Below, in pieces: positions 2,892 through 28,413 of a stretch of 51,233 nt of DNA. The notes below the pieces were generated by a model. That model searched no databases and was not told where the DNA came from. It saw only the letters and a list, made by a program, of their open reading frames with translations. Origin of the DNA: Methanobacteriota archaeon (GTDB lineage: Archaea; Thermoplasmatota; Thermoplasmata; SG8-5; JAGLSY01); the NCBI GenBank assembly GCA_020697715.1, contig JAEHCO010000008.1:1-51233 (forward strand), in the 5' to 3' direction. Position 1 is the first letter of the stretch. Every line of letters begins with the position of its first letter. The translations under genes were made by a program, and so were the position numbers.

Positions 2892-5800
2892 TTGGGCAAT
2901 AAGAACAAGAAATTATCAACAGTGATTTCGATGATCGTTGTGGTTTCTATGATCTCTATGTCTTGGTCGATATTGGCGTCAAATCTTGGCGACAACTCGG
3001 TCGATGCAATAGAATCAACGGATATTGTCCTGGTGACTTTTGATTCACCAGAACAAGCCAAGGAATTACAGGATCTCGGAACTGAAATTGTGAGCTTGAA
3101 TGAATGGGGAGCATATATTAAAGTAACAAACTCCCAGAGAGGATTACTCTCAGGAAAAATGAACATTGTGGACCTTAATGAAAGGACACAGATGAACTTC
3201 CTGGAGCAGGGTATCAACTTCAACACAGAAGTCGGATACAATGTTCCATCAAAACTCCAGAACGCTGGAACTCAGAACTACATTATCCAGTTCGTTGCAC
3301 CAGCTAACCAGGAATGGTTCAATGGCGTAGAGGCAGCCACTGGCGGTATCAGAAGATACGTCAATGACAATGCAGTCGTCGTCAAGCTGAACTCAGTAGA
3401 GAAGGCCAATGTCGAGAAATTGGACTATGTCCAGTGGGTCGGCCCATACGAGCCAGCATTCAAAGTGGATGCAAAACTCAATGGAAGGGTCGGAACCGTC
3501 AAGATGACCATCAACCCATTCCCTGGCATCAGTGCCGCACAGATCATGAATGAACTGAGCAGCCTTGGAGCATGGGATGTGATAGACACAGAATTCGGTC
3601 CAATACAATGCACAGCGGATGCATCATTGATAGCCGATGTCGCACAGCTGGAATCTGTGGATCAAGTCTGGAACCTACCAGAGATGAAACTTCTGAACAA
3701 TGTAGGTGGAAGGATATCACAGGCATGGGATCTGTGGGACCGTGACATCTCAAATCTGCCACAAGACATAGCAGGTGAGGGTCAGATCGTCCACGTCCAG
3801 GATTCTGGAATAGACGCATCTCACCCGGATTTCATTCAGGGTCCATTAGGCGACAGGCTTGAGAATCCAGATTCAACATCCGATGCAGAGTACCACGGAA
3901 CTCACGTTACAGGTACAGTTGCTGGAGATGGTGGAATGATGGAAGAATATCTCGGTCTAAGCTCTACAGACAGACTTTACAATGAGATAGCAGGGTCCAA
4001 CCCAGCAAACCGCCCAGATAGGGCCGGATTTGCAGGTAGGGCTCCAGAAGCTACCATCTACTTCAGAGCAGGCTTGACCTCATCTGAATGGTCAGCCGGT
4101 TATACCTTTGGTGCAAGAATATTCACCAATAGCTGGGGTCCAGCTACTATGTCTACAGGATATCAGGCAGATGCAGACAACTTCATGGAATCAAATGCAA
4201 ATTCCATTGTTTTGTTCGCCGCCGGAAATGATGGCCCAAGGACATTGACAGCAAGTGGAGACGGAAACGGTAAGCTTGCAGTTTCAGTGGGTGCAGCAGA
4301 GAACATGCGTGCTATCGACTTCGATTCGTCTGATAACTACGGCCAGATGGCCAGTTTCAGCAGCCGAGGACCTGCGGGTCCAGGCGATGACAGGATCAAA
4401 CCAGATGTCGTCGAGTCCGGAACAGCTGTTTACTCTGTCAAATCTGACGACACAGCAGAAGCCGAACTTCCAGGTCTTTATGATGAGATCATCGTTATAG
4501 ATGAAGACAACGATGGTATCGGTGACTACGCATCACTTCAGGGAACCTCAATGGCTTGCCCAGCAGCTGCTGGTGACACAGCCCTTATAAGGGACTACCT
4601 GGTAGATGTCGTTGGCATCACACCACATGGTAACCTTTTGAAGACTCTCCTTATCCACGGAGCCGTTGACATGGGACACGGATACCCAAGCAACGATCAG
4701 GGATGGGGACGTGTCAATGTGAGGAACTCAATCTGTCCACCTGCACCAAACACACTGCAGTGGTACCACTCAGCAGGAACAACAGGTACAACAGATGACT
4801 CAACAATGGGATTCGACATGGTCGTTACAGATGAGAGCGTGCCATTGAAGATCACCTTCTCACACTGGGACACAACATCCTCGGGTACATTGTCAACAGA
4901 CTATGACCTGGTTGTTACTTCTCCTGATGGAACAAGGTATGAAGGAAACGCTTTCAAAGAGGCAAAGTCGCTTCCAATGTCAGCTCCTGGTCAATGGGCA
5001 GATGCTGCTTATCCAAGTTGGATGGGCGGAGCAAGCTACGACTTCGACACAGCCAATGATGGCGGTGACGATATAAACAACGTAGAGATTGTCACCATCG
5101 CCGAGCCAAGAGTAGGAACATGGGACATAGACGTCATCCTTAAGGCTGGCGCAACATTCCCATGGTCTATTGCTATGACCGGTGGAATGGATACAGCCTC
5201 TGATGTTAACGCACCAGACAATGCTTACAAAGTAAGTATGTCACTTGACACACCAAGAGTAGTCCCAGAAACAGACGGATACGGAGAAGGTGTGTTCAAG
5301 GCAGCACAGAGTGGTAGCGTAATTGTACCATACTGGATAAACAATGGTGGATCAACAGCAGATTCTTACACGATCACATCATCTGTGCCAGGTGGTTTCA
5401 CAGCCGCTTACTTCCCAGCATCTGGTCTTTCAGTTGCAGTAAATGAGAGGGTACACGGATATGCAAGGATAAATGTAGGAGCAGTCGCAGCTGGAACATA
5501 CACTGTTACACTGACCGCAACATCAAACAACGATGCATCCGCACCTATCGCACAGTCAACTATAGCTTTCCAGGTGGATGTCGTAACAGAAGAGACACCA
5601 ACACAGTGGAAGATAGCAGACTCTCCAGTGCACGAGGACGCACCAGCATTTGTCTCCTGGGAATCAGGAGGTAATGATTATGTTGCATGTACCTACAGGC
5701 AGGATGAGAACTTCGGTGACAAGGCATACTTCACATACTCCAGCGATGCTGGTCTTACATGGAGTACACCAATACCAATATCCCAGGATTCATGGACACC

Positions 5801-8800
5801 AGGCTACTTAGGAATAACAAGGGCTACAGCAGGTGCATATGAAGGCAGACTTATGATCGGATACAATGCATGGAACCCCGATGGATATGGTGGTAGTACA
5901 GCAGATACACGATGTTCATACGTCAAGGTACACTACGCAGATTTCCCATACGATACATGGACAGAGGTAGATGCTTTCATTGAAGGAGAAGGATACACTG
6001 GCGGTGGCAGAGACACTTACAGGACGACCAATATCGTTTACTATCCAAATGGTGATCAATTCTACTTGGTAGTTGAGGACTTCGGTTACTCCGGTACTGA
6101 TTTGGGAACCGCAACCATGCAAACCATCTCAACCATTGGAAAATCATCTAGCGATGGCGGAGCAACATGGTCAGCTTGGACACAGATCGATCCAGGTGCA
6201 GCTGGTATGTACTACTTCTTCCCATATGCCTACACCGATCGTGATGGTGGCATAGGTCTATGGTACTACGAGAGGGACTCAAGTGACGCAGCTCAGGACA
6301 GAGATGCAACATTCCAGTACTACGACGGATCATGGGGCGCAGTTAGAATGGCTCTGGATTCACCAGACAACATGATGTTCCCACAGGGTGTAGCAGCAAA
6401 CCAGGGTGTCAACAATAACAGGCATTATGGTGCTTACCTGAAAGGTGCAAACACAGATGGCGACCGAAGTGTCGTTGTCATGTGGACCGATGATAATGGT
6501 GCCACCTTCGAGAACAATGGAAATGCTGGATACGGACCATACGGACCTGTAGCAAGTGACCACGATTATGGAACAAGGTTCCTTCTGGACATGGATTACA
6601 CGGTAGATGACTACATGTACGTGTTCCTGCACAGAAATGTTAGGTACGACCCATACGGTCAGCCAAACTTACTGATGTTCTATGACGACGATTACACAGG
6701 TGGAGCAGCTACAACGATCCAATACTTGACACTTGACAGCTTTGTCAAGGGCAAGCAGCGATCTGCATCATGGGAGAACTCCAACACAGTGATGATAGCA
6801 ACCAACCAGTTTACCAAGGAAGGCGGACATGACATTATTGCCATGCACGTGTTCAATGGCTGGGAATCTGCAGCAGATACTGTTGGACCAGTTACAGAAT
6901 ATGTCTCAACAGACAAGGTTCTGTGTACACCAGGTGACACTGTTGTGGTCGTAGGTAATGTACACGAGTGGACGACTGGCGGAAGCCTTGTCGCAGCTGC
7001 TCAGTACAAGACCGATGTGAACCCAACACCAGTCGCAATGGACACAATGGATGGTTCCTTCAACTCCCGAGCAGAGGCAGTTGAGAGTACTACCCCAATA
7101 GACACTACTGGCTGGGCTGGTGGATGGCACAAGATATGGGTACAGGGTCAAGACGCAGCCAACAACTGGGGCGAATGGGCCGAGACACAGATCTTCATCG
7201 ATTCACCAAGGAGACCATATGAACCAGTTAACCCAGATCCATACGATGGTGAGGCCGATGTAGTATTGAGCAAGACATTCAGTGTCGATGTTTCTGATTA
7301 TGAAGCAGAGAACATGGATGTTGTGTTCTACTGGTCACCATCTGGCACCCCATTCGCAACTGTGAACAATGTTCCACATGGTACAACTGCAACCACAGGC
7401 GCAATAGCACTCGCATCAGAGACAACATACGACTGGTACGCTATCGCAACAGACAGCATTGGATCAACACAGTCCGAGATCTGGACCTTCTCAACATTGG
7501 ACCAGACAGCACCAATACCTGTGACAAACCTGAATGTCATACACGATGGACCAGCAGGTTCCTCGACAGTTCAGCAGAGGTACATGAGAGGAGTAGCCAG
7601 TGAAGTGACCGTCAACACATTGACAGCCAACTTATTGGGTACAGCTCAATCAAGCAACATCCAGACCTCTGGATCACTTGGAAACCGTGCTGACATCTAT
7701 GTAGGTATTAGGGTGTGGAAGAACAGCGCAACTGGTGTGGAGACTGAGATAACCTCTGGAACCGCAGTCGCTATAACTGGTAGGACAGCTCAGTCTAGTG
7801 GATACCAAACCGCGGCATGGACTCCACCAGTGACTCCATTGAACCCAACTGACTCCATTATCGTCAGATTGTATGCATCAACGTCATCACCACCAACTGC
7901 ATTGAGGGCAACATTCACAACAGAGATACTTGGTGCTAATCAGCTTGATGCAAGCTCATGGACCTGCAGTTACTGGACACAAGTGGCCGGTATTGCTCAG
8001 GGCGGTAGTAATGTTCAGTGGGGCGCAGCAACTAGGAACACCAACATTGCAGGCTTCAGCTGGACCATAACTGCTAACCCATTGGACCACAACACAGTTA
8101 GCTGGACAGAGTCTGTATCTGGCGATGTTATGGAATATAACATCTACAGGTCAGCTACATCCGGAAGTGGATTTGTCCTTGTGGACACTGTTTCAGCAGG
8201 AACATCCAGCTGGGTCGACACAGGTGCAGGAGAGGCAGATGCTACACTATGGTGGTACATTGTCAGGGCTGTCGACACATCCTCCAATGAGGACACAAAC
8301 ACCGTTGAAAAGCAGGAACCAGGCGGATCATTCATAGTATATGATGTGGATGTAAGCGCCGCAAGTAATGGTGACTGGGTCTTCGTATCCTTCCCAATAG
8401 CAATGTCTGGTGACATAATAACTGTCCTGGACGATGCAACATGGGGAGATGGTGACACCACTTGGGACATAGCAATGTGGTATGACCCAACAGATGTAGA
8501 CCATTGGAAGACCTACGATAAGGCACAGCAAGCTGCTGGTCTTACCCAGGATATGCCAACCATCAACAATCAGATGGGTATGTGGGTCAAACTCGGAACC
8601 GCAGGAACTGAGCTGACCGCAGGTGAAGGTGTGGCACAGGGAACAGTAAACATCGATCTGTTCACTGGCTGGAACCTTGTTGGATACCCAGCAACCGATG
8701 ACTCGACCTATGATGTGTTTGATCTGAAAACAGATACTGGTGCATCAAAGGTTGAAGGCTACGGAGCTGGACCATACAACATAGTCACTATGGGTGATGC

Positions 8801-8873
8801 AGATGTTCTTACGAACGGTGCAGCCTACTGGGTCTATGTTGATGCAGACACAACCTGGACCATCGACTGGTAA
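2892..8873 (+). CDS. Large secreted multidomain subtilisin-like serine protease (S8, Kp43-like) with BNR/Asp-box propeller, Ig/FN3-like modules and C-terminal GWNLV-type domain
   Basis: Signal peptide; intact triad motifs VQDSGID, HGTHVTGT, GTSMACP; oxyanion FAAGNDG; FSSRGP..D.RIKPDV and QGWGRVN typical of Kp43-like subtilases; Asp-boxes SSDAGLTW, SSDGGATW, TDDNGATF; FN3-like YNIYRS..WYIVRAVD. Confidence 0.95.
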   Translation: MGNKNKKLSTVISMIVVVSMISMSWSILASNLGDNSVDAIESTDIVLVTFDSPEQAKELQDLGTEIVSLNEWGAYIKVTNSQRGLLSGKMNIVDLNERTQMNFLEQGINFNTEVGYNVPSKLQNAGTQNYIIQFVAPANQEWFNGVEAATGGIRRYVNDNAVVVKLNSVEKANVEKLDYVQWVGPYEPAFKVDAKLNGRVGTVKMTINPFPGISAAQIMNELSSLGAWDVIDTEFGPIQCTADASLIADVAQLESVDQVWNLPEMKLLNNVGGRISQAWDLWDRDISNLPQDIAGEGQIVHVQDSGIDASHPDFIQGPLGDRLENPDSTSDAEYHGTHVTGTVAGDGGMMEEYLGLSSTDRLYNEIAGSNPANRPDRAGFAGRAPEATIYFRAGLTSSEWSAGYTFGARIFTNSWGPATMSTGYQADADNFMESNANSIVLFAAGNDGPRTLTASGDGNGKLAVSVGAAENMRAIDFDSSDNYGQMASFSSRGPAGPGDDRIKPDVVESGTAVYSVKSDDTAEAELPGLYDEIIVIDEDNDGIGDYASLQGTSMACPAAAGDTALIRDYLVDVVGITPHGNLLKTLLIHGAVDMGHGYPSNDQGWGRVNVRNSICPPAPNTLQWYHSAGTTGTTDDSTMGFDMVVTDESVPLKITFSHWDTTSSGTLSTDYDLVVTSPDGTRYEGNAFKEAKSLPMSAPGQWADAAYPSWMGGASYDFDTANDGGDDINNVEIVTIAEPRVGTWDIDVILKAGATFPWSIAMTGGMDTASDVNAPDNAYKVSMSLDTPRVVPETDGYGEGVFKAAQSGSVIVPYWINNGGSTADSYTITSSVPGGFTAAYFPASGLSVAVNERVHGYARINVGAVAAGTYTVTLTATSNNDASAPIAQSTIAFQVDVVTEETPTQWKIADSPVHEDAPAFVSWESGGNDYVACTYRQDENFGDKAYFTYSSDAGLTWSTPIPISQDSWTPGYLGITRATAGAYEGRLMIGYNAWNPDGYGGSTADTRCSYVKVHYADFPYDTWTEVDAFIEGEGYTGGGRDTYRTTNIVYYPNGDQFYLVVEDFGYSGTDLGTATMQTISTIGKSSSDGGATWSAWTQIDPGAAGMYYFFPYAYTDRDGGIGLWYYERDSSDAAQDRDATFQYYDGSWGAVRMALDSPDNMMFPQGVAANQGVNNNRHYGAYLKGANTDGDRSVVVMWTDDNGATFENNGNAGYGPYGPVASDHDYGTRFLLDMDYTVDDYMYVFLHRNVRYDPYGQPNLLMFYDDDYTGGAATTIQYLTLDSFVKGKQRSASWENSNTVMIATNQFTKEGGHDIIAMHVFNGWESAADTVGPVTEYVSTDKVLCTPGDTVVVVGNVHEWTTGGSLVAAAQYKTDVNPTPVAMDTMDGSFNSRAEAVESTTPIDTTGWAGGWHKIWVQGQDAANNWGEWAETQIFIDSPRRPYEPVNPDPYDGEADVVLSKTFSVDVSDYEAENMDVVFYWSPSGTPFATVNNVPHGTTATTGAIALASETTYDWYAIATDSIGSTQSEIWTFSTLDQTAPIPVTNLNVIHDGPAGSSTVQQRYMRGVASEVTVNTLTANLLGTAQSSNIQTSGSLGNRADIYVGIRVWKNSATGVETEITSGTAVAITGRTAQSSGYQTAAWTPPVTPLNPTDSIIVRLYASTSSPPTALRATFTTEILGANQLDASSWTCSYWTQVAGIAQGGSNVQWGAATRNTNIAGFSWTITANPLDHNTVSWTESVSGDVMEYNIYRSATSGSGFVLVDTVSAGTSSWVDTGAGEADATLWWYIVRAVDTSSNEDTNTVEKQEPGGSFIVYDVDVSAASNGDWVFVSFPIAMSGDIITVLDDATWGDGDTTWDIAMWYDPTDVDHWKTYDKAQQAAGLTQDMPTINNQMGMWVKLGTAGTELTAGEGVAQGTVNIDLFTGWNLVGYPATDDSTYDVFDLKTDTGASKVEGYGAGPYNIVTMGDADVLTNGAAYWVYVDADTTWTIDW

Positions 8874-18482: not shown

Positions 18483-18502
18483 ATTATATGATGATAGTCA
18501 TG

Positions 18503-18553
18503 CATACGCCTTAGGAGTTATCAATCATACGCCTTAGGAGTTATCAATCATAC
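18503..18553. repeat. Perfect 23-bp tandem duplication (2.2 copies)
   Basis: CATACGCCTTAGGAGTTATCAAT at 18503-25 and 18526-48, then CATAC. Confidence 0.95.
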
Positions 18554-18663
18554 AAATGAATAAGTTCCATACATGAGAACGAATGCTTATTATTTATTTA
18601 TACACGCATAAATAATATATACTGTACTAGCTTTATCTATGTTAGTTGGTTAGCTATGCAATG

Positions 18664-18857
18664 AGGACTCCCACACCAGGCATGGAAATATGAGTTCTTA
18701 TTGAATTCAATCCAAGCTAATTCCACAATCGCTATGTATCTACAATCTAAAAATTGTGGCAGTAAATGTTCACCCACGTGGAATCAAACATTTATTGATG
18801 AAAGAATTCCAAGAATTCTTCGTATTAGAGCTTGGAGATAATTCAATAGCCATGCCT
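18664..18857 (+). ncRNA. Candidate structured RNA / long 5' leader with four-way junction
   Basis: Six nested helices found by eye: 18678-85/18850-57, 18699-707/18840-48, 18711-18/18829-36, and abutting hairpins 18723-59, 18760-97, 18798-823; G-U pairs favour the + strand; TATA-like TTTATCTA at 18632-39. Confidence 0.65.
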
Positions 18858-18880
18858 ATAGAACATTACACACGGGGTAT

Positions 18881-20548
18881 ATGATGAGTGAATTAGTGGT
18901 CAAAAGATCTATGGCAGTGATATTGAGTTTAATATTCATTATGTCCATTGTCCCTACATTCGCTGAAGCCCAAGTGGTCGATTCAGTAGATATACGCATA
19001 CCTGGACGGGATCAAGGTGGGATGAAGATCGTTGCAGGAGTATTACACAACCTGTCAGTTGAGTTGAACTCCCCTGTAAATTCAGTGGATATTTATGCCC
19101 ATTCTGTTGAAAATCTTGATTACCAGATCATTAATGTGACAGAATCTCTTGTAGGAGTGATCGATGATACAACATACTCTGGCAACCTGAAATTCAAAGA
19201 TATTGTAGGGGAAGCCGTTCTGGAAAGCAATGGGAATCTCATACCAGCTACCGAATACACGATCACAAATGAAACTGGCCAGATCAGTATTTTGCCTTCA
19301 ACTTATATTGCATTGAATTTGGATCAGGGGCTGAATATCAGCTATTCAACTCTCAGAAACATGACCAATTATTATCACTGGTCTTATAATAATTCTGTAT
19401 GGACAGATAATCTGGGCCTAGACCTGATCAATACAGGTCTTTCAGAGATATATGGCAATACATATTGTTTTTACATTGGCATGATAGGCAATGCCACACC
19501 AGGACATTGGAGCCTATCGATCATAACGGATGGCCAGACAGACCAGGCATGGGATGGGACCTTACAAGTGGAAGCTCCCGTATCTGGAATTGCATTTTCA
19601 GGACCGAACTTCTATTTCAATGTGCCTCCTTTCGAGACGGATTCCATTAATACATATGTGCCAGACAATCCTCGAAATACAACTTATTTCACAACAACGA
19701 ACTCGGGCAATGTCCCCATGGATTTTCAGATAACATATGACGATTTTAATGATCGATTCTCCACTACCAATTCCACTGGCGTTACTTATCCTTTTGAAAA
19801 AAGAACCCACCATATATCATTCCAGGCTGATGCATGGAGCCCCAGAGAATTCAAGGTAAAAGGTAGGATCCATGGTGAGCCAAAGATGCTTGTGAACCCG
19901 AGCATGATATCGTTCATACTTGCACCGGAATCTGCATTCAATGTCATCGTTACAGTTGCCAGACCAGGATTTGAGATATTCCAAATGCCCGGTCTTGTAG
20001 TTCAGTACAATGAGAGGATTCTCGCAAATTACAATGATGAATTGGCGCTTGATCTTTATATCACTGGAACAAAGAATAGCCATCTGTCCACAGAGGGCGA
20101 TAAGCTTACTTTATTGAACATACAGCAAGATGGCATAATAATGTCCCAGCCGGTATACATACAGGTTTCGGAAGAGACAGAGACGCATCTGATTGTAAAT
20201 GTCAATTGCTCGATCGCACCCCCCAGGGGAAAGCTTTCAATGATGGCCTATGTTAACTTTGTAGCGGAAACAGATGATTTTGTATCATCTGGAAACTTCA
20301 CAACGACTATTGTTGTGAAGGCCAAATCATTTCTGGAAGAAGAGGAGGATACAGGGCTTGGCTCTATGAACATATTGGCAATTATCTTGATCATTGCAGG
20401 GATCGCACTGGCATTCCTTTCAATGGCATATTACAAACGTAAAGAAGAGAAGGAGAGGAAGATAAAAGAAGAAAAAGAGAAGGCCGAGAAAAAGAACAAG
20501 AAAGGAGGTTCAGGTTACAAACGGCGGAAGAAGAAGAAATGGGTTTGA
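18881..20548 (+). CDS. Hypothetical cell-surface glycoprotein with C-terminal membrane anchor and highly basic tail
   Basis: Signal peptide ending AEA, beta-rich body with many N-x-S/T sequons, TM NILAIILIIAGIALAFLSMAYY, tail KRKEEKERK...KRRKKKKWV. Confidence 0.8.
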   Translation: MMSELVVKRSMAVILSLIFIMSIVPTFAEAQVVDSVDIRIPGRDQGGMKIVAGVLHNLSVELNSPVNSVDIYAHSVENLDYQIINVTESLVGVIDDTTYSGNLKFKDIVGEAVLESNGNLIPATEYTITNETGQISILPSTYIALNLDQGLNISYSTLRNMTNYYHWSYNNSVWTDNLGLDLINTGLSEIYGNTYCFYIGMIGNATPGHWSLSIITDGQTDQAWDGTLQVEAPVSGIAFSGPNFYFNVPPFETDSINTYVPDNPRNTTYFTTTNSGNVPMDFQITYDDFNDRFSTTNSTGVTYPFEKRTHHISFQADAWSPREFKVKGRIHGEPKMLVNPSMISFILAPESAFNVIVTVARPGFEIFQMPGLVVQYNERILANYNDELALDLYITGTKNSHLSTEGDKLTLLNIQQDGIIMSQPVYIQVSEETETHLIVNVNCSIAPPRGKLSMMAYVNFVAETDDFVSSGNFTTTIVVKAKSFLEEEEDTGLGSMNILAIILIIAGIALAFLSMAYYKRKEEKERKIKEEKEKAEKKNKKGGSGYKRRKKKKWV

Positions 20549-20623
20549 ATTCTTTGGATAATTAATATATATAATAAGGATATATGTTAACAAACCCAAC
20601 TTTACATATCTAGAGGGTAAGCT

Positions 20624-21298
20624 ATGATGAACGGGAGGAGGATGAATTCAATAGCAGTTGGAAAAATATTCGCTTTTCTAATAGTGTTCAGCTTGACCCT
20701 TGTAATGATCCCGGAGGCTGTTGATGCCCAAGCAGGTGTTGGTGTATCCAATGATCCACCAGCTATGGTCGATATATTTGTAGACGACCATAATGGTCTT
20801 ATCATGGTCCATGTCTCACTGAAAGATCTGAATGGTTGGAGTGATATTTACAATATAACATTGGTAGTTCTTGATGGCAATGGGAACGAGATCTGTAATG
20901 TCACGTATAAACAATACACCGATCTGGATGCAACCATTGCAGTCATAGATTGGGTTCAGACCAAGGGTGATTATCTGGATGAAGATAACTCCGGATATCT
21001 ACCTGTTGAAATAGATGAATGGGAAGAGAATTCAATAGATGCTGTTGGCCTGAACGTTAGCTTTGCATTGATCCCATTCTCCGGTGATATTATCAAGATA
21101 AATGCCTATGATATGAAAGAAGCCAGATGTGGTTACGAAGGCCCATTCTCAGCAGATTATGAGATCCCTCCGTATTTTGGAGATGATGTCGTTGTACCTA
21201 TCGGCATATCATTCATGACTGCAATAATTGGTGCATTCTTTATAGTTTACAGGCGAATGAAGAACAATAAGTTAGCAAGACTGATCGAAGGAAAATGA
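20624..21298 (+). CDS. Hypothetical small surface protein with signal peptide and C-terminal membrane anchor
   Basis: Hydrophobic N-terminus ending VDA, acidic beta-rich (Ig-like) core, TM VVVPIGISFMTAIIGAFFIVY then RRMKNNK. Confidence 0.8.
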   Translation: MMNGRRMNSIAVGKIFAFLIVFSLTLVMIPEAVDAQAGVGVSNDPPAMVDIFVDDHNGLIMVHVSLKDLNGWSDIYNITLVVLDGNGNEICNVTYKQYTDLDATIAVIDWVQTKGDYLDEDNSGYLPVEIDEWEENSIDAVGLNVSFALIPFSGDIIKINAYDMKEARCGYEGPFSADYEIPPYFGDDVVVPIGISFMTAIIGAFFIVYRRMKNNKLARLIEGK

Positions 21299-21319
21299 TG
21301 ATGATGATGGTAGGTTAAA

Positions 21320-24300
21320 ATGGATCGAATATGCCCTATGTGCCAAACACTGACATACGACGACTCAATTACCGAATGCGGTAACTGTGGAGCGGAGCTA
21401 CCGCCTGTTGATGAAGAGGAAGTGGTCATAGAAGAGCAAGAAGAGGAAGTGGACAGCCTTGATCTTAGTGACCTAGATCTTGATGATGACAGTGAAGATG
21501 TAAGCACAGGCCTGGAAGGATTAGATCTTGACCTTGGAGAAGAAGAGGAAATAACAGAGGAAACTGCCCCTGCAACAGAAGATGTTGAGGAGCCAGAAAT
21601 TGAAGAAGAGGCCGAGGACATCTCCGAAGATGGGGAAGAAGACGCTGGCGATTGGGATCTTGGAACTATTGGAGGAGATTCCCCTGACGAATCATTTTCA
21701 GTAGATGAGGAAGAAGAAGAAGAAGAAGAAGAAGCCATCGATGAAGACGAGATAGATGATGGTGAAGAATTAGTTGACGAGGAAGAGAGTGATGATGGTG
21801 ATGTTGAAGAGATCATCATAGAAGAGAACCAATTACTATGCCCATCATGTGATGAGATCAATAACACAGATAGCGAATCATGTTCAAATTGCGGTTATGA
21901 ACTGGGGCATTCGAAGAGATGTCCATCATGCGCGAAGGGTATAGACAAAACTGCCGAGATATGCCCGAATTGTTACACAGACCTGGCAACATTCAAACCA
22001 GATGAGCCTGAAGAGGATGAAGAAGAGATCATCGAGGAAGATGGAACTGAAGAGGATGAAGAAGACACCCCGACAGACGATGATCCTGAAGAGGAAGTAG
22101 AAGTATCTGAGGATGAAGAAGGTGTGGATGACCTGGATGAGGTCGAAGATACACCTGAAGATGGAACCGAGGAAGATACAAAAGAGAAAAAGTCATCACG
22201 ATGGGGAAAGAAATCCAAAAAGAAGAAAGGTGATCCTCAAGAGGATGTTGATGATGATACCTCTGATATCGACGATGAGTCTCTGGATGCAGATGAAAGA
22301 TCCGAAGAGATGAAAAAGGACAAGTTAAATGCAAAGATCAGAGACAGAAGAAAAAAGGATGAGATAGACCAGATACTGGAAGAAGAAAAGAGAGAAGGCT
22401 TCTTCAATTATTACAATATGAGCTTGATAACACTGTTCTTCTACGTGTTCCTTGCCATATTCGTCCTTGTCGAATTCATCATGATGGTTACAAATATGGT
22501 GAGTGACACAGGAATACCAACAGTATCATTCAGCCTTGTTCCAACTTATGGTGATGTCTCAAGCATATCCATCCTGCTTTTCGCTATGTTATTGTCCATG
22601 AGTTCCGCTTTGCTTCATTTATGGGACAGGAAACTGAACCTCATGCTCTCACTGATACCTTCCACACTTATGGCAGTTGGTCTCGGTATGGATGTGGTAT
22701 ATTCATCCCTGTTCCTTGGTGGCGATCTTATCGTGATAATCATCATGCTCTTTTTGCTCCTAATGATGATATTCCTTGATTTCTTCCTGATATTCTTCAA
22801 GTATCCAGAAGTTCTTGAAGATAATTCCAGGGACGAGCTGGAGCTTTTCCTGGAGAAAGAAGAGGAACTGGAGGAGATCCAGCAACAACTGGAAGAAGAA
22901 CATGAAAAGATGATCCAGGAAGAAGAAGAGAAGTTACGGCTCAAAGATGAAGAGATCAATGAGATCAAGACCGAGCTGGAATCACTTTCAGACCAGATCC
23001 AGATGGAAGAAGAGAAATTGAGAATGAAGGAAGAAGAGGTCTCAGCTATCCGTTCAGAACTGGAACTCAAGACCCAACACATGGCAGAAGAAGAAGAGAA
23101 ACTGAGGATGAAGGAAGAAGAAATGGAAAGCCTCATCCAGACCGAGCTGGAAAAGCGCGCTGATGACATGATGATGGAAGAGGAAGAAAAACTCCGTATG
23201 AAAGAAGAAGAATTGATCCATTCCAGAAGCGAGCTGGACATACAGAAGAACCTCCTTGATGATAGTAGAGAGAAATTGAGAATGAAAGAGCAGGAGATGA
23301 TGAATCTCCGAACTGAACTGGAAAGCCAGATGAGACATCGAATGGATGAGGAAGACAAGCTGAAATTAAAAGAAGCTGCGAACAAGATGCTTGACAGGGG
23401 AAAGCAAAAGCGTGTCCTTTTCCCATTCACTGCCATGGTCGGCCAGGAAAAGATGAAGAGCGCACTTACCCTAAATGCGATCTATCCTGAGATCGGTGGT
23501 GTTCTTATCAGAGGACAGAAAGGAACCGGAAAATCTGTTTCGGTCAGAGGTCTTTCAGAGATCCTTCCAGATATAGAGGTCACTGGATGTAAGTTCAATT
23601 GTGATCCTAAAGAAGAAGATAAATTCTGTACGGAATGTGCGGCTAGACATAAAGCTGGAAATCTGAGAGTTGAAACACGCCAGGTCCAGGTCGTTGATCT
23701 GCCACTGAATGTTACAGAAGATAGATTGGTTGGAAGCATTGATATCGAGAAGGTCCTTACAGAAGGTGTGAAATCCTTCGAGCCAGGTATACTTGCCGAG
23801 GCTCACAGAGGAGTTCTGTATGTGGATGAGATCAACCTGCTGGATGATTACATTGTTGATATATTACTTGATGCCGCAGGTTCTGGTGTCGTTACCATAG
23901 AAAGAGAAGGTATCAGTCTGAGCCATCCATCAAGATTCTTGATAGTTGGAAGTATGAATCCAGAAGAAGGAGAATTGAGGCCACAGATATTGGACAGGAT
24001 CGCACTTCAGACGGATGTTGTGGGTATCAAGGATGTCGCCAAGAGAATAGATATCGTGAGACGTCGGGAAGAGTTCTCCACCGAACCATTGGTGTTCAGA
24101 GAGAAGTTCGAGCCCTCGAGAAAGGAATTGGTGGATAAGATAGAGAGGGCAAGTGGACTCATATCCAAGGTGACCACACCAGAGAGAATATTCAAATTAA
24201 TAGCTCAGGTATGCATGGACTTCAATGTCGATGGGCACAGAGCGGACATTATCATAGAAAGAGCAGCACGTGCTAATGCGGCCTTTGAAGGACGCATGGA

Positions 24301-24442
24301 AACAGCCACGGAAGACGTGGTCGTGGCTGCCTCAATGGCCTTACCACACAGAATGAAGAGAAGGGCATTTGAAGATGATGAGGAGTTCAGCGAAGAGATG
24401 CTAAGACGGCTTGTTGATAAAAGGGAAGCTGAGCTAGAATAA
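21320..24442 (+). CDS. Membrane-anchored ChlI/BchI-type AAA+ ATPase fusion (zinc ribbons, acidic linkers, 4 TM helices, coiled-coil repeats, AAA+ domain)
   Basis: CPMC..CGNC, CPSC..CSNC, CPSC..CPNC; D/E-rich tracts; four hydrophobic segments ~22418-22800; EEEEKLRMKEEE repeats; [56 protein letters not shown]. Confidence 0.9.
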   Translation: MDRICPMCQTLTYDDSITECGNCGAELPPVDEEEVVIEEQEEEVDSLDLSDLDLDDDSEDVSTGLEGLDLDLGEEEEITEETAPATEDVEEPEIEEEAEDISEDGEEDAGDWDLGTIGGDSPDESFSVDEEEEEEEEEAIDEDEIDDGEELVDEEESDDGDVEEIIIEENQLLCPSCDEINNTDSESCSNCGYELGHSKRCPSCAKGIDKTAEICPNCYTDLATFKPDEPEEDEEEIIEEDGTEEDEEDTPTDDDPEEEVEVSEDEEGVDDLDEVEDTPEDGTEEDTKEKKSSRWGKKSKKKKGDPQEDVDDDTSDIDDESLDADERSEEMKKDKLNAKIRDRRKKDEIDQILEEEKREGFFNYYNMSLITLFFYVFLAIFVLVEFIMMVTNMVSDTGIPTVSFSLVPTYGDVSSISILLFAMLLSMSSALLHLWDRKLNLMLSLIPSTLMAVGLGMDVVYSSLFLGGDLIVIIIMLFLLLMMIFLDFFLIFFKYPEVLEDNSRDELELFLEKEEELEEIQQQLEEEHEKMIQEEEEKLRLKDEEINEIKTELESLSDQIQMEEEKLRMKEEEVSAIRSELELKTQHMAEEEEKLRMKEEEMESLIQTELEKRADDMMMEEEEKLRMKEEELIHSRSELDIQKNLLDDSREKLRMKEQEMMNLRTELESQMRHRMDEEDKLKLKEAANKMLDRGKQKRVLFPFTAMVGQEKMKSALTLNAIYPEIGGVLIRGQKGTGKSVSVRGLSEILPDIEVTGCKFNCDPKEEDKFCTECAARHKAGNLRVETRQVQVVDLPLNVTEDRLVGSIDIEKVLTEGVKSFEPGILAEAHRGVLYVDEINLLDDYIVDILLDAAGSGVVTIEREGISLSHPSRFLIVGSMNPEEGELRPQILDRIALQTDVVGIKDVAKRIDIVRRREEFSTEPLVFREKFEPSRKELVDKIERASGLISKVTTPERIFKLIAQVCMDFNVDGHRADIIIERAARANAAFEGRMETATEDVVVAASMALPHRMKRRAFEDDEEFSEEMLRRLVDKREAELE

Positions 24443-24455
24443 GCGGGTGTGAGAG

Positions 24456-25523
24456 ATGGATAATGAAGGTCAAAGTGGATCCAAAGCTCAACCGAAGAGG
24501 GTTGTTTACCCATTCAATGCGATAGTTGGCCAGGAAGTTTTGAAAAAAGCCCTTTTGCTAAATATAATAAACCCCAATGTGGGCGGTGTATTGATCAGGG
24601 GTGAAAAGGGAACTGCCAAGTCCATCGCTGTGAGAGCCTTATTGGATATCCTTCCAGAGATCAAGGTCGTGGAGGGATGCAAGCTGAATTGCCATCCCAA
24701 GGACCCTGAAAAATATTGTACGGAATGTAAGGCCAAGCATGAGAAGGGCGAGATACAGGAAACATTGAAGCCAATAAATGTGGTTGATCTTCCATTGAAT
24801 ATCACGGAAGATAGATTGGTTGGTAGCATAGATATCGAGAAAGTTTTATCCCAGGGAGTCAAGGCTTTCGAGCCAGGTATACTTGCGGAGGCCCACAGAG
24901 GAATCCTATATGTTGATGAGATAAATCTGCTTGAGGACAATATAGTAGATGTTCTTCTGGATGCCGCGGCAATGGGTGTTGTGACCGTTGAAAGAGAGGG
25001 AATAAGTCTTAATTTCCCATCCAAGTTCATTCTTATTGGAAGCATGAATCCTGAAGAAGGGGAACTGAGACCACAGCTTCTGGATCGTCTGGCACTTCAG
25101 GCCGAAGTGAAAGGAATTGCGGATGTGGATCAGAGAGTGGACATAATCAAGAAGACAAAGGCCTTTGCCAATGATCCATGGCTTTTCAGGGAAGAGTTCA
25201 AGGATGACATTGAGGAATTGAAGAAGACCATTGTTAAGGCGCGAGACATCCTTCCAGAAGTGACAACCGCTGATCACACACTTTCCATCATTACAAGACT
25301 GGGAATTGATTTCAATATTGATGGTCACAGAGGCGACATTATAATTGAGAAGACAGCGAGGACCAATGCCGCCCTGGAAGGCCGCAAAGAGGCCAATGCG
25401 GACGATGTTATCGTTGCCGCGGAGATGGCCCTGCCCCACAGGATGAGGAAGCAGCCCTTCGAGGAAGAGAGCTTCAGCGTGGAAGTATTACGCAGGCTGG
25501 TTAGAAAGTATCAAGATGAGTGA
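24456..25523 (+). CDS. Stand-alone ChlI/BchI-type AAA+ ATPase (Mg/Co-chelatase subunit I family)
   Basis: [18 protein letters not shown] Walker [10 protein letters not shown] Walker [29 protein letters not shown]. Confidence 0.93.
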
Positions 25524-27008: not shown

Positions 27009-27114
27009 TGTATCACCTGTGTTTGGGGTGCTTATACCCAATCTTTCATATATTGTTTATGCAGGAATATGGAAGCACAAGATATTTATCTCTCATTTCC
27101 TCTACATGTTATCA

Positions 27115-28413
27115 ATGACATCAAAGGTCAAGCTCCAGGTGGCCCTGGATATTATTCAGGGAGACAGAGCGATACAGATAGCCAGGGAAGCCGTGGAAGG
27201 CGGAGCCGATTGGATAGAGGCTGGCACTCCTCTCATCAAGAGTGAGGGCATGGATATTATTAGAAGATTAAAAGCCGAATTTCCTGACAAGACCATTGTC
27301 GCGGACATGAAGACGATGGATGTCGGAGGCCTGGAGGTGGAGATGGCCACACGCTCGGGGGCTGATGTCGTGGCGATCATGGGATTGTCAGATGATGGAA
27401 CTATCACGGAAGCGGTAAAATCTGCAAGCCAGTACGGTTCACTTGTAATGGCCGATCTGATGAACGTGGAGAACATGGAGGAGCGCGTTAGACAACTGGA
27501 AGGCTTTGGAGTTCACATTCTCTGCGTGCACGCGAGCATTGATCATCAAATGACTGGCGGCAAACCATTTGATCTTGTCAAGACACTTTTCCAGATAACG
27601 AAATTACCTATCGCGGTCGCTGGCGGGATAAATTCCGAGACTGCATCAACAGCCATCGCCAATGGTGCTTCGATCATCATTGTCGGAGGAGCGATCATCA
27701 AGGCGAATGATGTCACCCAGGCAACTGCTGACATTCAGAAGGCCATTGATGAGATGATACCAGTCAGTACAGATCTTTTCAAGAAATACAGTGCGGAGAG
27801 CATAAGAGAGGCACTGGAGAAAGTATCCACACCCAATATTGCGGATGCCATGCACAGAGAAGGCGCGATGATGGACATTAACCCCATCATCAAGCGAAAT
27901 GGAAAGATGATAGGCAGAGCACTTACAGTCAGCACGATTGACGGGGACTGGGCAAAGCCAGTTGAGGCCATCGACCAGGCCAATGAGGGTGATGTTCTCG
28001 TGATAAATGCAGGTAGTGGCAAAATTGCAGTATGGGGAGAGCTGGCATCATGGAGCTGTAAACAGCGCGGCATATCCGGAGTTGTCATCGATGGTGCGAT
28101 AAGGGACATCGATGAGATCCAGGACATGGATTTCCCGGCATTTGCAAAACATGTGCGACCATGCGCGGGTGAGCCAAAGGGGCATGGGGAGATCGGCAGT
28201 AAGATAATCTGTGGAGGCCAGAAGGTCGAGACTGGCGATTGGATAGTCGGCGATGAAACTGGTGTCGTGGTCATTCCAAAACATTCAGCTGTTGAGATTG
28301 CCAACCGTGCGCTTGATGTTTATGAGCGGGAGAACAGAATACGTGAAGAGATCAAGCGTGGCAGCACTCTCTCGAAGGTTCTTGATCTGACAAAATGGGA
28401 AAAAACTGGCTGA
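27115..28413 (+). CDS. hxlA: 3-hexulose-6-phosphate synthase fused to an RraA/MenG-like domain
   Basis: LQVALD, IEAGTPLIKSEG, ADMKTMD, AVAGGI (HPS barrel); C-terminal STPNIADAM, WGELAS, VIDGAIRD, GDWIVGDETGVVVIP (RraA); probably leaderless start at 27115. Confidence 0.92.
   Translation: MTSKVKLQVALDIIQGDRAIQIAREAVEGGADWIEAGTPLIKSEGMDIIRRLKAEFPDKTIVADMKTMDVGGLEVEMATRSGADVVAIMGLSDDGTITEAVKSASQYGSLVMADLMNVENMEERVRQLEGFGVHILCVHASIDHQMTGGKPFDLVKTLFQITKLPIAVAGGINSETASTAIANGASIIIVGGAIIKANDVTQATADIQKAIDEMIPVSTDLFKKYSAESIREALEKVSTPNIADAMHREGAMMDINPIIKRNGKMIGRALTVSTIDGDWAKPVEAIDQANEGDVLVINAGSGKIAVWGELASWSCKQRGISGVVIDGAIRDIDEIQDMDFPAFAKHVRPCAGEPKGHGEIGSKIICGGQKVETGDWIVGDETGVVVIPKHSAVEIANRALDVYERENRIREEIKRGSTLSKVLDLTKWEKTG

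Follow-up and report, generated by a model that had tools for sequence, protein, structure and literature searches.

The stretch of DNA analysed here (the window) is a whole contig, C33, of 51,233 bases from the thermoplasmatal genome G000 (2.12 Mb in 34 contigs, estimated to be 93.8% complete). It contains four genes, g1 to g4, encoding two anchored surface proteins, a fusion protein in which a ChlI-type AAA+ ATPase is tethered to the membrane, and a soluble ChlI-type ATPase (Table 1). A first reading of the bare sequence, referred to below as the original prediction, had proposed a trans-envelope machine at this locus. Open reading frames (ORFs) were called by a simple longest-ORF script, and start codons are approximate. 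The calls confirmed four co-oriented genes, all on the forward strand and separated by gaps of 75, 21 and 13 nt. According to Pfam, the locus is flanked by MCM, DUF424 and NMD3 upstream and by cysS on the reverse strand downstream. The non-coding stretch ahead of g1 is likely the promoter region of the operon. In the protein database, the close relatives of g2 and g3 are labelled as coming from a 'Thermoplasmata archaeon'.

Table 1. Features discussed in the text. Positions refer to the window unless another contig of G000 is named.
Feature	Position	Strand	Description
Upstream non-coding stretch	18483..18880	+	398 nt; no + strand ORF of at least 80 aa between NMD3 (end 18482) and g1
g1	18881..20548	+	555 aa; type-I anchored, surface glycoprotein-like; signal-like N-terminus, tandem Ig-like domains, transmembrane helix 498-516, K/R/E-rich tail
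g2	20624..21298	+	224 aa; type-I anchored; conserved DxNGWxDI motif, transmembrane helix 189-207, cytoplasmic tail motif N-K-L-A-R-L-I-E
g3, whole	21320..24442	+	1040 aa
g3, residues 1-218	21320..21973	+	zinc ribbon 1 (C5-C23), acidic tract, double zinc ribbon (C174-C218); from Pfam DZR and Zn_ribbon and CxxC positions
g3, residues 219-355	21974..22384	+	acidic, then mixed-charge linker, predicted cytoplasmic; poorly conserved in alignments A2 and A5
g3, residues 356-495	22385..22804	+	block of four transmembrane helices; invariant H433 and D436 (LHxWD motif); from helix prediction and alignment columns
g3, residues 496-695	22805..23404	+	coiled-coil stalk with six 28-residue repeats (EEEKLRMKEEE units); conserved in alignment A2
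g3, residues 696-1040	23405..24442	+	ChlI-type AAA+ module, intact catalytic motifs; Cys4 insert C757, C761, C770, C773
g4	24456..25523	+	355 aa; soluble AAA+ ATPase of the ChlI type, paralogous to the module in g3
C29 half of the system (locus L097)	contig C29: 22,006-34,209		1872-aa surface protein, 307-aa transmembrane protein, I2 (335 aa), vWA-AAA-AAA protein (955 aa)
X array (loci L094-L096)	contig C11: 764,496-808,305		13 tandem secreted paralogues, 741-1795 aa
Further X copy	contig C11: 815,704-817,890	-	14th paralogue, near the array
Haem cluster (locus L104)	contig C11: ~561,500-571,200		complete-looking, siroheme-dependent, Ahb-type

Both g1 and g2 start with a hydrophobic, signal-like segment and end in a charged tail that follows a single predicted C-terminal transmembrane (TM) helix, which agrees with the two exported, C-terminally anchored proteins announced by the original prediction. 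In their ectodomains N-x-S/T sequons outnumbered the expectation from shuffling (11 vs 6.4 in g1, 3 vs 0.8 in g2). No Pfam or NCBIfam family matched either protein. In the ESM Atlas, used for leads only, g1 resembled archaeal NPCBM_assoc/FixG_C/CARDB-type proteins at 0.78 and g2 fell into an unnamed Thermoplasmatota cluster. The g1 family counted 235 representatives among 1.84 billion. Modelled by AlphaFold2 from a 27-sequence alignment (mean predicted local distance difference test, pLDDT, of 80.9), g1 took the form of a string of immunoglobulin (Ig)-like sandwiches. In fold searches the domain 232-360 was PapD/MSP/ASH-like at Z 10.4-10.9, matching PapD-family chaperones at Z 9.0-10.7 and MSP/ASH domains equally well at Z 10.6-10.9; the domain 369-484 gave macroglobulin/Ig-like matches with Z of about 10.

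The fusion protein g3 is the most unusual of the four. Its N-terminal 355 residues consist to 42.5% of Asp and Glu and hold three Cys4 zinc ribbons. Four predicted TM helices span residues 372-488, and since their number is even, both ends of the protein are expected to be cytoplasmic. The coiled coil of some 200 residues has a heptad periodicity, with autocorrelation maxima at 7, 14, 21 and 28, and its repeats lie at 535, 563, 591, 621, ~651 and 677; by arithmetic from its span, a fully extended stalk would measure about 30 nm. The ChlI module at the C-terminus scored 392.7 bits with TIGR02030 and 454.7 bits with TIGR02442. The LHxWD motif of the 4-TM block and intact Walker A and B motifs were found in 21/21 aligned fusion homologues; the number of zinc ribbons varied between none and three (three in 12/21, none in 5/21), and homologues from family f18 miss the N-terminal extension entirely. 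Because all 21 homologues keep the motifs while the N-terminus varies, we conclude that the fusion is genuine and that its invariant core is made of the 4-TM block, the coiled coil and the ChlI module. The worry voiced with the original prediction, that the fusion might be an assembly chimera, can be dismissed on the same count: block, coiled coil and intact module stay together in 21/21 homologues.

Both g3 and g4 have an intact Walker A, Walker B, sensor 1, Arg finger and sensor 2. The original prediction had described g3 as a 1040-residue protein joining zinc ribbons, acidic tracts, four TM helices, a coiled coil and a ChlI domain with intact motifs, and g4 as its ChlI paralogue, and every part of this description held. 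With TIGR02030, g4 reached 417.1 bits; compared with solved structures, it matched cyanobacterial ChlI (6l8d) at E 1.9e-100 and ComM at only 8.5e-7. The BchI-ChlI equivalog cut-off of 466.95 bits was reached neither by g3 (392.7) nor by g4 (417.1), and the best match in the whole genome also stayed below it. In a phylogenetic tree, which held one bona fide chelatase ChlI, the clades of g3 and g4 were set apart from this reference and from the clade of I2, a further ChlI-like protein described below. Support was 91/98 for the g4 clade, 100/99 for the g3 clade without one long row, a moderate 77/79 for g3 and g4 together, and 99/96 for the fast-evolving I2 clade. Whether the ATPases group with true chelatases, on which the original prediction partly hinged, is thus answered in two ways: the clades are separate, but g4 lies near true ChlI and reference sampling is thin. 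An extra ChlI gene at L093:1-1437(-) on contig C11 of the related genome G009, a 479-residue ORF with a C-terminal extension, grouped with canonical chelatase ChlI; G009 is without CobN, and the gene context at L093 is cut by the contig end.

Nearly all genomes used for comparison are draft assemblies of related organisms. When neighbourhoods were compared by BLASTP, the order g1-g2-g3-g4 was found with short or overlapping junctions in 12 clusters in which all four genes were called, the gap between g2 and g3 ranging from -4 to +21 nt in 11 of the 12. Two further clusters, in G006 and G031, had one gene mis-called by the ORF picker or cut by a contig end. The synteny on which the original prediction depended was therefore found: the gene order is conserved in at least 14 related genomes and across at least nine families. 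The proteins themselves diverge to different degrees, with identities to the window proteins of 47-78% for g3 and 61-93% for g4, down to 23% for g1 and to about 30% for g2. A search with g3 recovered a long fusion ORF in 20/41 related genomes, nearly always with a ChlI gene of ~360 residues directly after it. The families that carry the system are f1, f2, f3, f4, f5, f12, f14, f15 and f18.

Wider searches were made in a class-wide sample of 401 genomes (g2 profile and CobN) and in a phylum-wide sample of 401 genomes (TM block). The g2 profile matched 55/401 class genomes, and part of these matches came from g1-g2 pairs free of ChlI: all 15 such loci that were fetched, stemming from f11, f23, f25, part of f18 and second copies in the window's own taxonomic order, had no ChlI gene in the fetched stretch. 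Here the gene after g2 encoded a protein of 160-343 residues with three to four TM helices in all six cases examined, three of them ending in a zinc ribbon; the stand-alone 4-TM proteins of f11 have this ending. One stand-alone 4-TM protein carries a motif nearly identical to the LHxWDRKxNL...IPS of g3. Aligned by hhalign, the TM block of g3 and the stand-alone proteins gave 97.5% probability (E 5.1e-12, 131 columns), a score which TM composition may inflate; homology between them is nevertheless the probable explanation because the polar motif is shared besides the hydrophobic composition. The phylum-wide search yielded TM-block homologues in 24/53 genomes of one family in another class, where the order g1, g2, 4-TM protein recurred in 3/3 fetched contexts and two of three 4-TM proteins end in a PAS domain. 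At L101:8419-9795(-) and L103:9075-10358(-) the 4-TM partner has a K/R-rich linker, a coiled coil and the C-terminal PAS domain, and at L102 each of two g1 copies is preceded by a gene of the X family described below. In two f18 loci, L081:3296-9610(-) and L083:4545-10910(+), ChlI-free g1-g2 pairs are followed by giant proteins of ~2100 residues with FG-GAP (integrin-alpha-like) repeats.

The cytoplasmic tail of g2 distinguishes the two forms of the system. Its motif N-[KR]-[LM]-A-[RK] was present in 12/12 ChlI-linked clusters and missing in 10/11 ChlI-free ones, and in the one ChlI-free cluster that has it the 4-TM protein also bears a long cytoplasmic extension. The tail motif thus tracks the ChlI-linked form. 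Of the original proposal that the ATPase fusion is coupled to extracellular subunits, the link itself has been strengthened by the homology of its TM block to the 4-TM proteins that follow g1 and g2; the hetero-oligomeric ring, the mechanical work and its outputs are still conjectural.

Upstream of g1 usually lies a gene for a secreted Ig-like protein, which we call X. A profile of the X domain, built from the copies in G000, found 18 proteins in 13/29 loci, directly upstream of g1 in 12 of them and 1.2 kb away in one. Besides the array and the nearby copy listed in Table 1, G000 has an additional match on contig C22. The N-terminal parts of the paralogues vary, and a C-terminal strand, VPGATxEGIYQAxITFxIGYY, is near-identical among them. 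The AlphaFold2 model of the X domain comprised two Ig-like domains (pLDDT 82.7, predicted template modelling score, pTM, 0.80). Its fold matches were generic Ig folds, above which the archaeal S-layer chain 7ptp_A at Z 8.8 did not stand out, and the best Foldseek matches were CFA/I pilin fusions with TM-scores of only 0.28-0.41. We did not file the module under S-layers, given that the fold matches of g1 and X are generic and 7ptp_A is one of many Ig matches. Nor did we file it under chaperone-usher systems: the matches are generic Ig-like, PapD/MSP or pilin-like only, and ushers were not searched for. Like g2, the X proteins, stand-alone 4-TM proteins and most neighbours had no match in Pfam. 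Taken together, the core of the system is a phylum-wide surface module of X, g1, g2 and a 4-TM protein, with the membrane subunit as a platform for varied cytoplasmic modules.

The original prediction had stressed that neither a vWA domain nor an H/N subunit of a chelatase is encoded nearby. For the window this was correct, as no vWA or CobN domain was found among the ORFs scanned; for the genome it did not hold with respect to vWA. On contig C29, a 955-residue protein begins with a ChlD-type vWA domain that is followed by two ChlI-derived AAA modules (vWA-AAA-AAA), and its gene overlaps the start of the gene for I2, the third ChlI-like protein in G000. Genes next to them encode an anchored surface protein of 1872 residues, whose cytoplasmic tail is long and acidic, and a 307-residue TM protein that combines an acidic tract with a double zinc ribbon. 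The same pair adjoins the four-gene locus in relatives: in G009 the genes run vWA-AAA-AAA, I2, g1, g2, g3, g4 on one strand, in G022 they are co-oriented in the same order with two X genes between I2 and g1, and 1-3 kb separate the pair from g1-g4 in G006 and G029. A NikR-type nickel-responsive regulator is encoded just upstream of the vWA-AAA-AAA gene in G009 (L031:16321-16740(-)), and an HhH protein is encoded beside the vWA gene in G022. Class-wide, full-length matches to vWA-AAA-AAA were obtained only in carrier families (29/29 genomes with a g2 match <1e-50), and in the three families having only ChlI-free g1-g2 pairs there were none in 11, 33 and 10 genomes. The claim that the ATPases have no chelatase partners must therefore be given up as far as the D subunit is concerned. 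Since a ChlD-type protein and I2 are co-encoded with g1-g4, adjacent or co-occurring, the machine is nearer to an I/D chelatase motor than had been supposed.

The motifs of these partners divide them from the window ATPases. I2 has lost the Walker A Ser/Thr and the Walker B Asp-Glu, and both AAA modules of the 955-residue protein have lost Walker A and Walker B. The metal ion-dependent adhesion site (MIDAS; DxSxS, T, D) is intact in 6/6 vWA-AAA-AAA proteins. Overall, the system counts two active AAA+ modules (g3, g4), three inactive ones and one MIDAS site, a layout which echoes the logic of chelatase motors with an active I and an inactive D subunit. A segment ahead of the vWA domain is common to vWA-AAA-AAA and the canonical ChlD of the CobN-positive genome G026; the domain order, however, is not the canonical AAA-linker-vWA seen in that ChlD. 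A variant without TM helices was observed in f18, at L098 (G083), L099 (G154) and L100 (G046). Its cluster begins with an anchored surface protein of ~810 residues, followed by a protein of 742-796 residues with HhH, an acidic tract, several zinc ribbons and an active ChlI; further genes encode a degenerate AAA protein of 617-653 residues, whose N-terminus bears a zinc ribbon, and a vWA protein of ~413 residues that stands alone and has a degenerate MIDAS.

The H/N subunit is a different matter. CobN/ChlH (PF02514) gave no match in G000, at its 93.8% completeness, and none in the carrier-family genomes sampled (f1 0/4, f2 0/2, f3 0/2, f4 0/13, f5 0/3, f12 0/7, f14 0/1, f15 0/2, f18 0/44), so that this part of the original claim stood up to a wider search. 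In the class-wide sample CobN was found in 54/401 genomes, all but one weak match belonging to f9, f10, f20 and f30, with high frequency in f9 (36/48), f20 (12/43) and f30 (4/5); it was also found in five control genomes. The H/N subunit, the architecture of the D-like protein and the equivalog scores all fail to agree with a class I chelatase. We hold with considerable confidence that the system is not a tetrapyrrole chelatase. With the catalytic subunit of chelatases not found in carrier genomes, the motor very probably does a job other than pigment or vitamin B12 synthesis.

We did not retain the argument that a tetrapyrrole substrate is missing, because G000 holds a full Ahb-type haem cluster. 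It comprises a radical SAM/SPASM protein, two NirDL-like decarboxylases, a Met8/SirC-like protein, hemA, hemB, hemL, hemC, a SUMT-HemD fusion and another radical SAM protein; CbiX and ferrochelatase were not found in G000. An identity as a defence system was rejected after a scan with PADLOC-DB 2.0, in which no model matched g1, g2, g3, I2, the vWA protein or the zinc-ribbon protein (0/6), and of the seven proteins scanned g4 alone gave two weak, generic AAA matches (E 1.3e-4). A link to ribosome biogenesis by way of the neighbouring NMD3 was likewise rejected: this neighbourhood is kept only within the same genus (L036) and not in other families. The remaining genes of the window are housekeeping genes. 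We also noted a 1993-residue protein with a subtilase domain (2892-8873, forward strand), an 841-residue WD40 beta-propeller protein truncated by the contig start (3-2525, reverse strand) and a 464-residue protein in which an OMP-decarboxylase/HUMPS-family domain is fused to an RraA-like aldolase domain (27019-28413, forward strand).

In our view it is about an even call that a chelatase-derived AAA+/vWA motor has been recruited to the surface module and remodels, assembles or controls surface proteins from inside the cell. This proposal builds on what was observed of gene content, on synteny and co-occurrence, on which motifs are intact and on homologies of the parts. From these we infer a ring composition, a physical coupling, a direction of action and an output, modelled by analogy on the ChlI/ChlD motor and on MoxR-vWA remodellers. 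g3 and g4 would form an ATP-hydrolysing ring under the membrane, held by the stalks of g3, and I2 and vWA-AAA-AAA would constitute an inactive adaptor tier; speculatively, two copies of each would supply six AAA modules. The MIDAS may grip an acidic ligand, possibly the acidic cytoplasmic tracts or tails. ATP-driven movement would then travel along the stalk and through the 4-TM block and reach g1 and g2 at their TM anchors and tails, and the outcome may be control over the assembly, anchoring, exchange or conformation of X-family surface proteins. A bolder version, in which a stalk-hung, two-tier AAA+/vWA motor pulls or rotates the anchors of surface proteins via a 4-TM transducer and thus represents an unrecognised archaeal trans-membrane mechanochemical machine, is put forward tentatively, and we are more inclined to doubt than to accept it.

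Several points weigh against recruitment to the surface module. The genomes compared are kin, so that the co-occurrence counts and the correlation of the g2 tail are not independent observations and overstate independence. Within G000 itself, the vWA/I2 pair lies on another contig and the X genes on C11, so the linkage rests on relatives. The modelled folds of g1 and X are generic Ig-like and name no function. The score on which homology of the TM block partly relies may be inflated, as said, and PAS-bearing 4-TM paralogues would fit signalling from outside to inside as well as work from inside to outside. Furthermore, g4 is very close to true ChlI, the tree that separates them has a single bona fide chelatase as reference and moderate support for g3 with g4, one genome has NikR next to the vWA gene, and G000, to judge from its haem cluster, makes tetrapyrroles, so that a chelation role would be conceivable on pathway grounds.

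If the direction of action were reversed, X, g1 and g2 would sense contact or a ligand, the 4-TM block would relay the signal and the ChlI/vWA motor would act on a cytoplasmic client, a protein complex or DNA. We judge this unlikely. The PAS ends in two of three 4-TM proteins of the other class and the zinc-ribbon ends in f11 speak for a platform carrying varied cytoplasmic modules, but the ChlI-linked forms are without PAS domains; HhH domains, in the ChlI protein that accompanies an anchored surface protein in the TM-less f18 variant and in the protein beside the vWA gene of G022, point in the same direction, yet no client could be identified. Force transmission would account at least equally well for a stalk that is long and looks rigid and for the conserved tail motif of g2. 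Metal insertion, either by a class I-like chelatase whose catalytic subunit has escaped recognition or by a metallochaperone in the manner of MoxR/vWA pairs that loads a membrane or surface client, appears quite improbable to us. For such a role, NorQ/NorD offers a precedent in passages of PMC9976466 on MoxR-vWA pairs that insert metal cofactors. The nearness of g3 and g4 to true ChlI and the pre-vWA segment shared by their partner with canonical ChlD would suit a chelatase, but the NCBIfam equivalog cut-offs are unmet and CobN/ChlH was not found in the sampled carrier-family genomes. The haem pathway of G000, with no CbiX or ferrochelatase match, speaks for metal insertion, the Met8/SirC-type gene within its cluster against it. 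G009 is the one genome in which NikR was seen next to the vWA gene, and while the TM block has an invariant His and Asp, the conserved partners are extracellular Ig-like proteins in which no metal or tetrapyrrole site is recognisable.

Conflict systems can contain AAA+/vWA modules, and an NTPase/vWA module might guard a surface receptor against viruses. That the X family of G000 has grown to 14 paralogues, variable except for their constant C-terminus, could reflect a diversifying pressure on the surface. We nevertheless regard this explanation as very improbable: the PADLOC models matched 0/6 proteins, with g4 matched weakly and generically, the locus lies among housekeeping genes, no effector domain (nuclease, protease or toxin) is present, and conservation is vertical across families, the trees of g3 and g4 being alike. 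Equally hard to credit is that a surface operon happens to neighbour an orphan ChlI pair without any functional coupling. The 15/15 fetched ChlI-free loci show that g1-g2 clusters exist without ChlI genes; mere adjacency is nonetheless practically eliminated because a covalent fusion joins ChlI to the 4-TM partner of g1-g2 in 21/21 homologues. Gene junctions are overlapping or very short, and the order is kept across at least nine families.

Returning to the proposed recruitment of an AAA+/vWA motor, the findings have several implications. A near-canonical ChlI engine has been kept across several uncultured Thermoplasmata families in which the catalytic subunit was not found, and it has been fused to the membrane partner of a surface module. 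To our knowledge, no role of ChlI-type motors has been described other than driving Mg- and Co-chelatases. The findings also caution against taking the annotation 'Mg-chelatase subunit ChlI' in these genomes for a sign of chlorophyll or cobalamin metabolism. If the coupling is real, it would be a natural example of an AAA+/vWA motor re-targeted to a new client and a compact test system for force transmission of the I/D type, combining an active pair with an inactive adaptor tier and a MIDAS. It would also give a first handle on how the envelope is built or regulated in abundant uncultured archaea, where the families of X, g1, g2 and the 4-TM proteins are wholly unannotated. The mechanochemical machine, if it exists, would provide ATP-powered control of the surface from inside, assembling, exchanging or releasing variable Ig-like proteins, for which no archaeal counterpart has been described.

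Among known systems, the ChlI/ChlD motors (BchI/BchD, CobS/CobT) are closest in their parts. g3 and g4 belong to the ChlI clade with all catalytic motifs, the partner has a ChlD-type vWA with MIDAS and pre-vWA segment together with inactive AAA modules, and the active and inactive tiers parallel I and D. The differences are that CobN/ChlH was not found in G000 or the sampled carrier families, that one ChlI is tethered to the membrane through four TM helices and a coiled coil, that the D-like protein has the order vWA-AAA-AAA, that there is an extra degenerate ChlI (I2), and that surface proteins are the operon partners. As a functional model we adopted the MoxR-vWA pairs (CbbQ-CbbO, NorQ-NorD, RavA-ViaA, CoxD-CoxE), which combine an AAA+ ring and a vWA/MIDAS adaptor for a non-tetrapyrrole client; PMC9976466 and PMC3471820 are part of the basis for this model. 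The co-encoded vWA/MIDAS adaptor is found here too (29/29 co-occurrence; adjacent in G009 and G022). In contrast, the best models for g3 and g4 are TIGR02030 and TIGR02442, with AAA_5 secondary and no match to AAA_3/COG0714, and those pairs are not known to have a membrane tether or surface partners.

Other systems resemble this one in the way they work or in their surface components. In the mechanotransmission ABC systems MacB, FtsEX and LolCDE, a cytoplasmic ATPase drives a 4-TM protein, the movement of which does extracytoplasmic work without transporting a substrate across the membrane. The likeness is one of working principle and we claim no homology: the ATPase there is of the ABC type, here it is AAA+ and would be joined via a long coiled coil. 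Two-component archaeal S-layers with a membrane-anchored stalk protein (Sulfolobus SlaA/SlaB) and Ig-domain S-layer proteins invite comparison, since the secreted multi-Ig X proteins and the C-terminally anchored g1 and g2 would be compatible with such an arrangement; we know of no ATPase attached to S-layer anchors. FtsH and Msp1-type AAA proteins differ, neither PF00004 nor a peptidase family being among the Pfam matches of g3 and g4. The closest published concept that we found is the predicted archaeal secretion/surface system around arCOG01314 (Makarova, Galperin and Koonin 2015, PMC5898192), in which a MoxR-type AAA+ ATPase and a vWA protein go together with several Ig-like proteins that are anchored in the membrane or resemble S-layer proteins. 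Common to both are the AAA+ ATPase, the vWA protein and several Ig-like surface proteins. However, its vWA protein is secreted, its ATPase is of the COG0714/MoxR type and its anchor is a flavodoxin-like membrane protein, none of which was detected here. Neither a membrane-tethered ChlI nor this surface module turned up in the open-access full-text literature searched. The parts of the ChlI/ChlD family are thus already known; what is new is a chelatase-type AAA+/vWA motor in a novel architecture and context.

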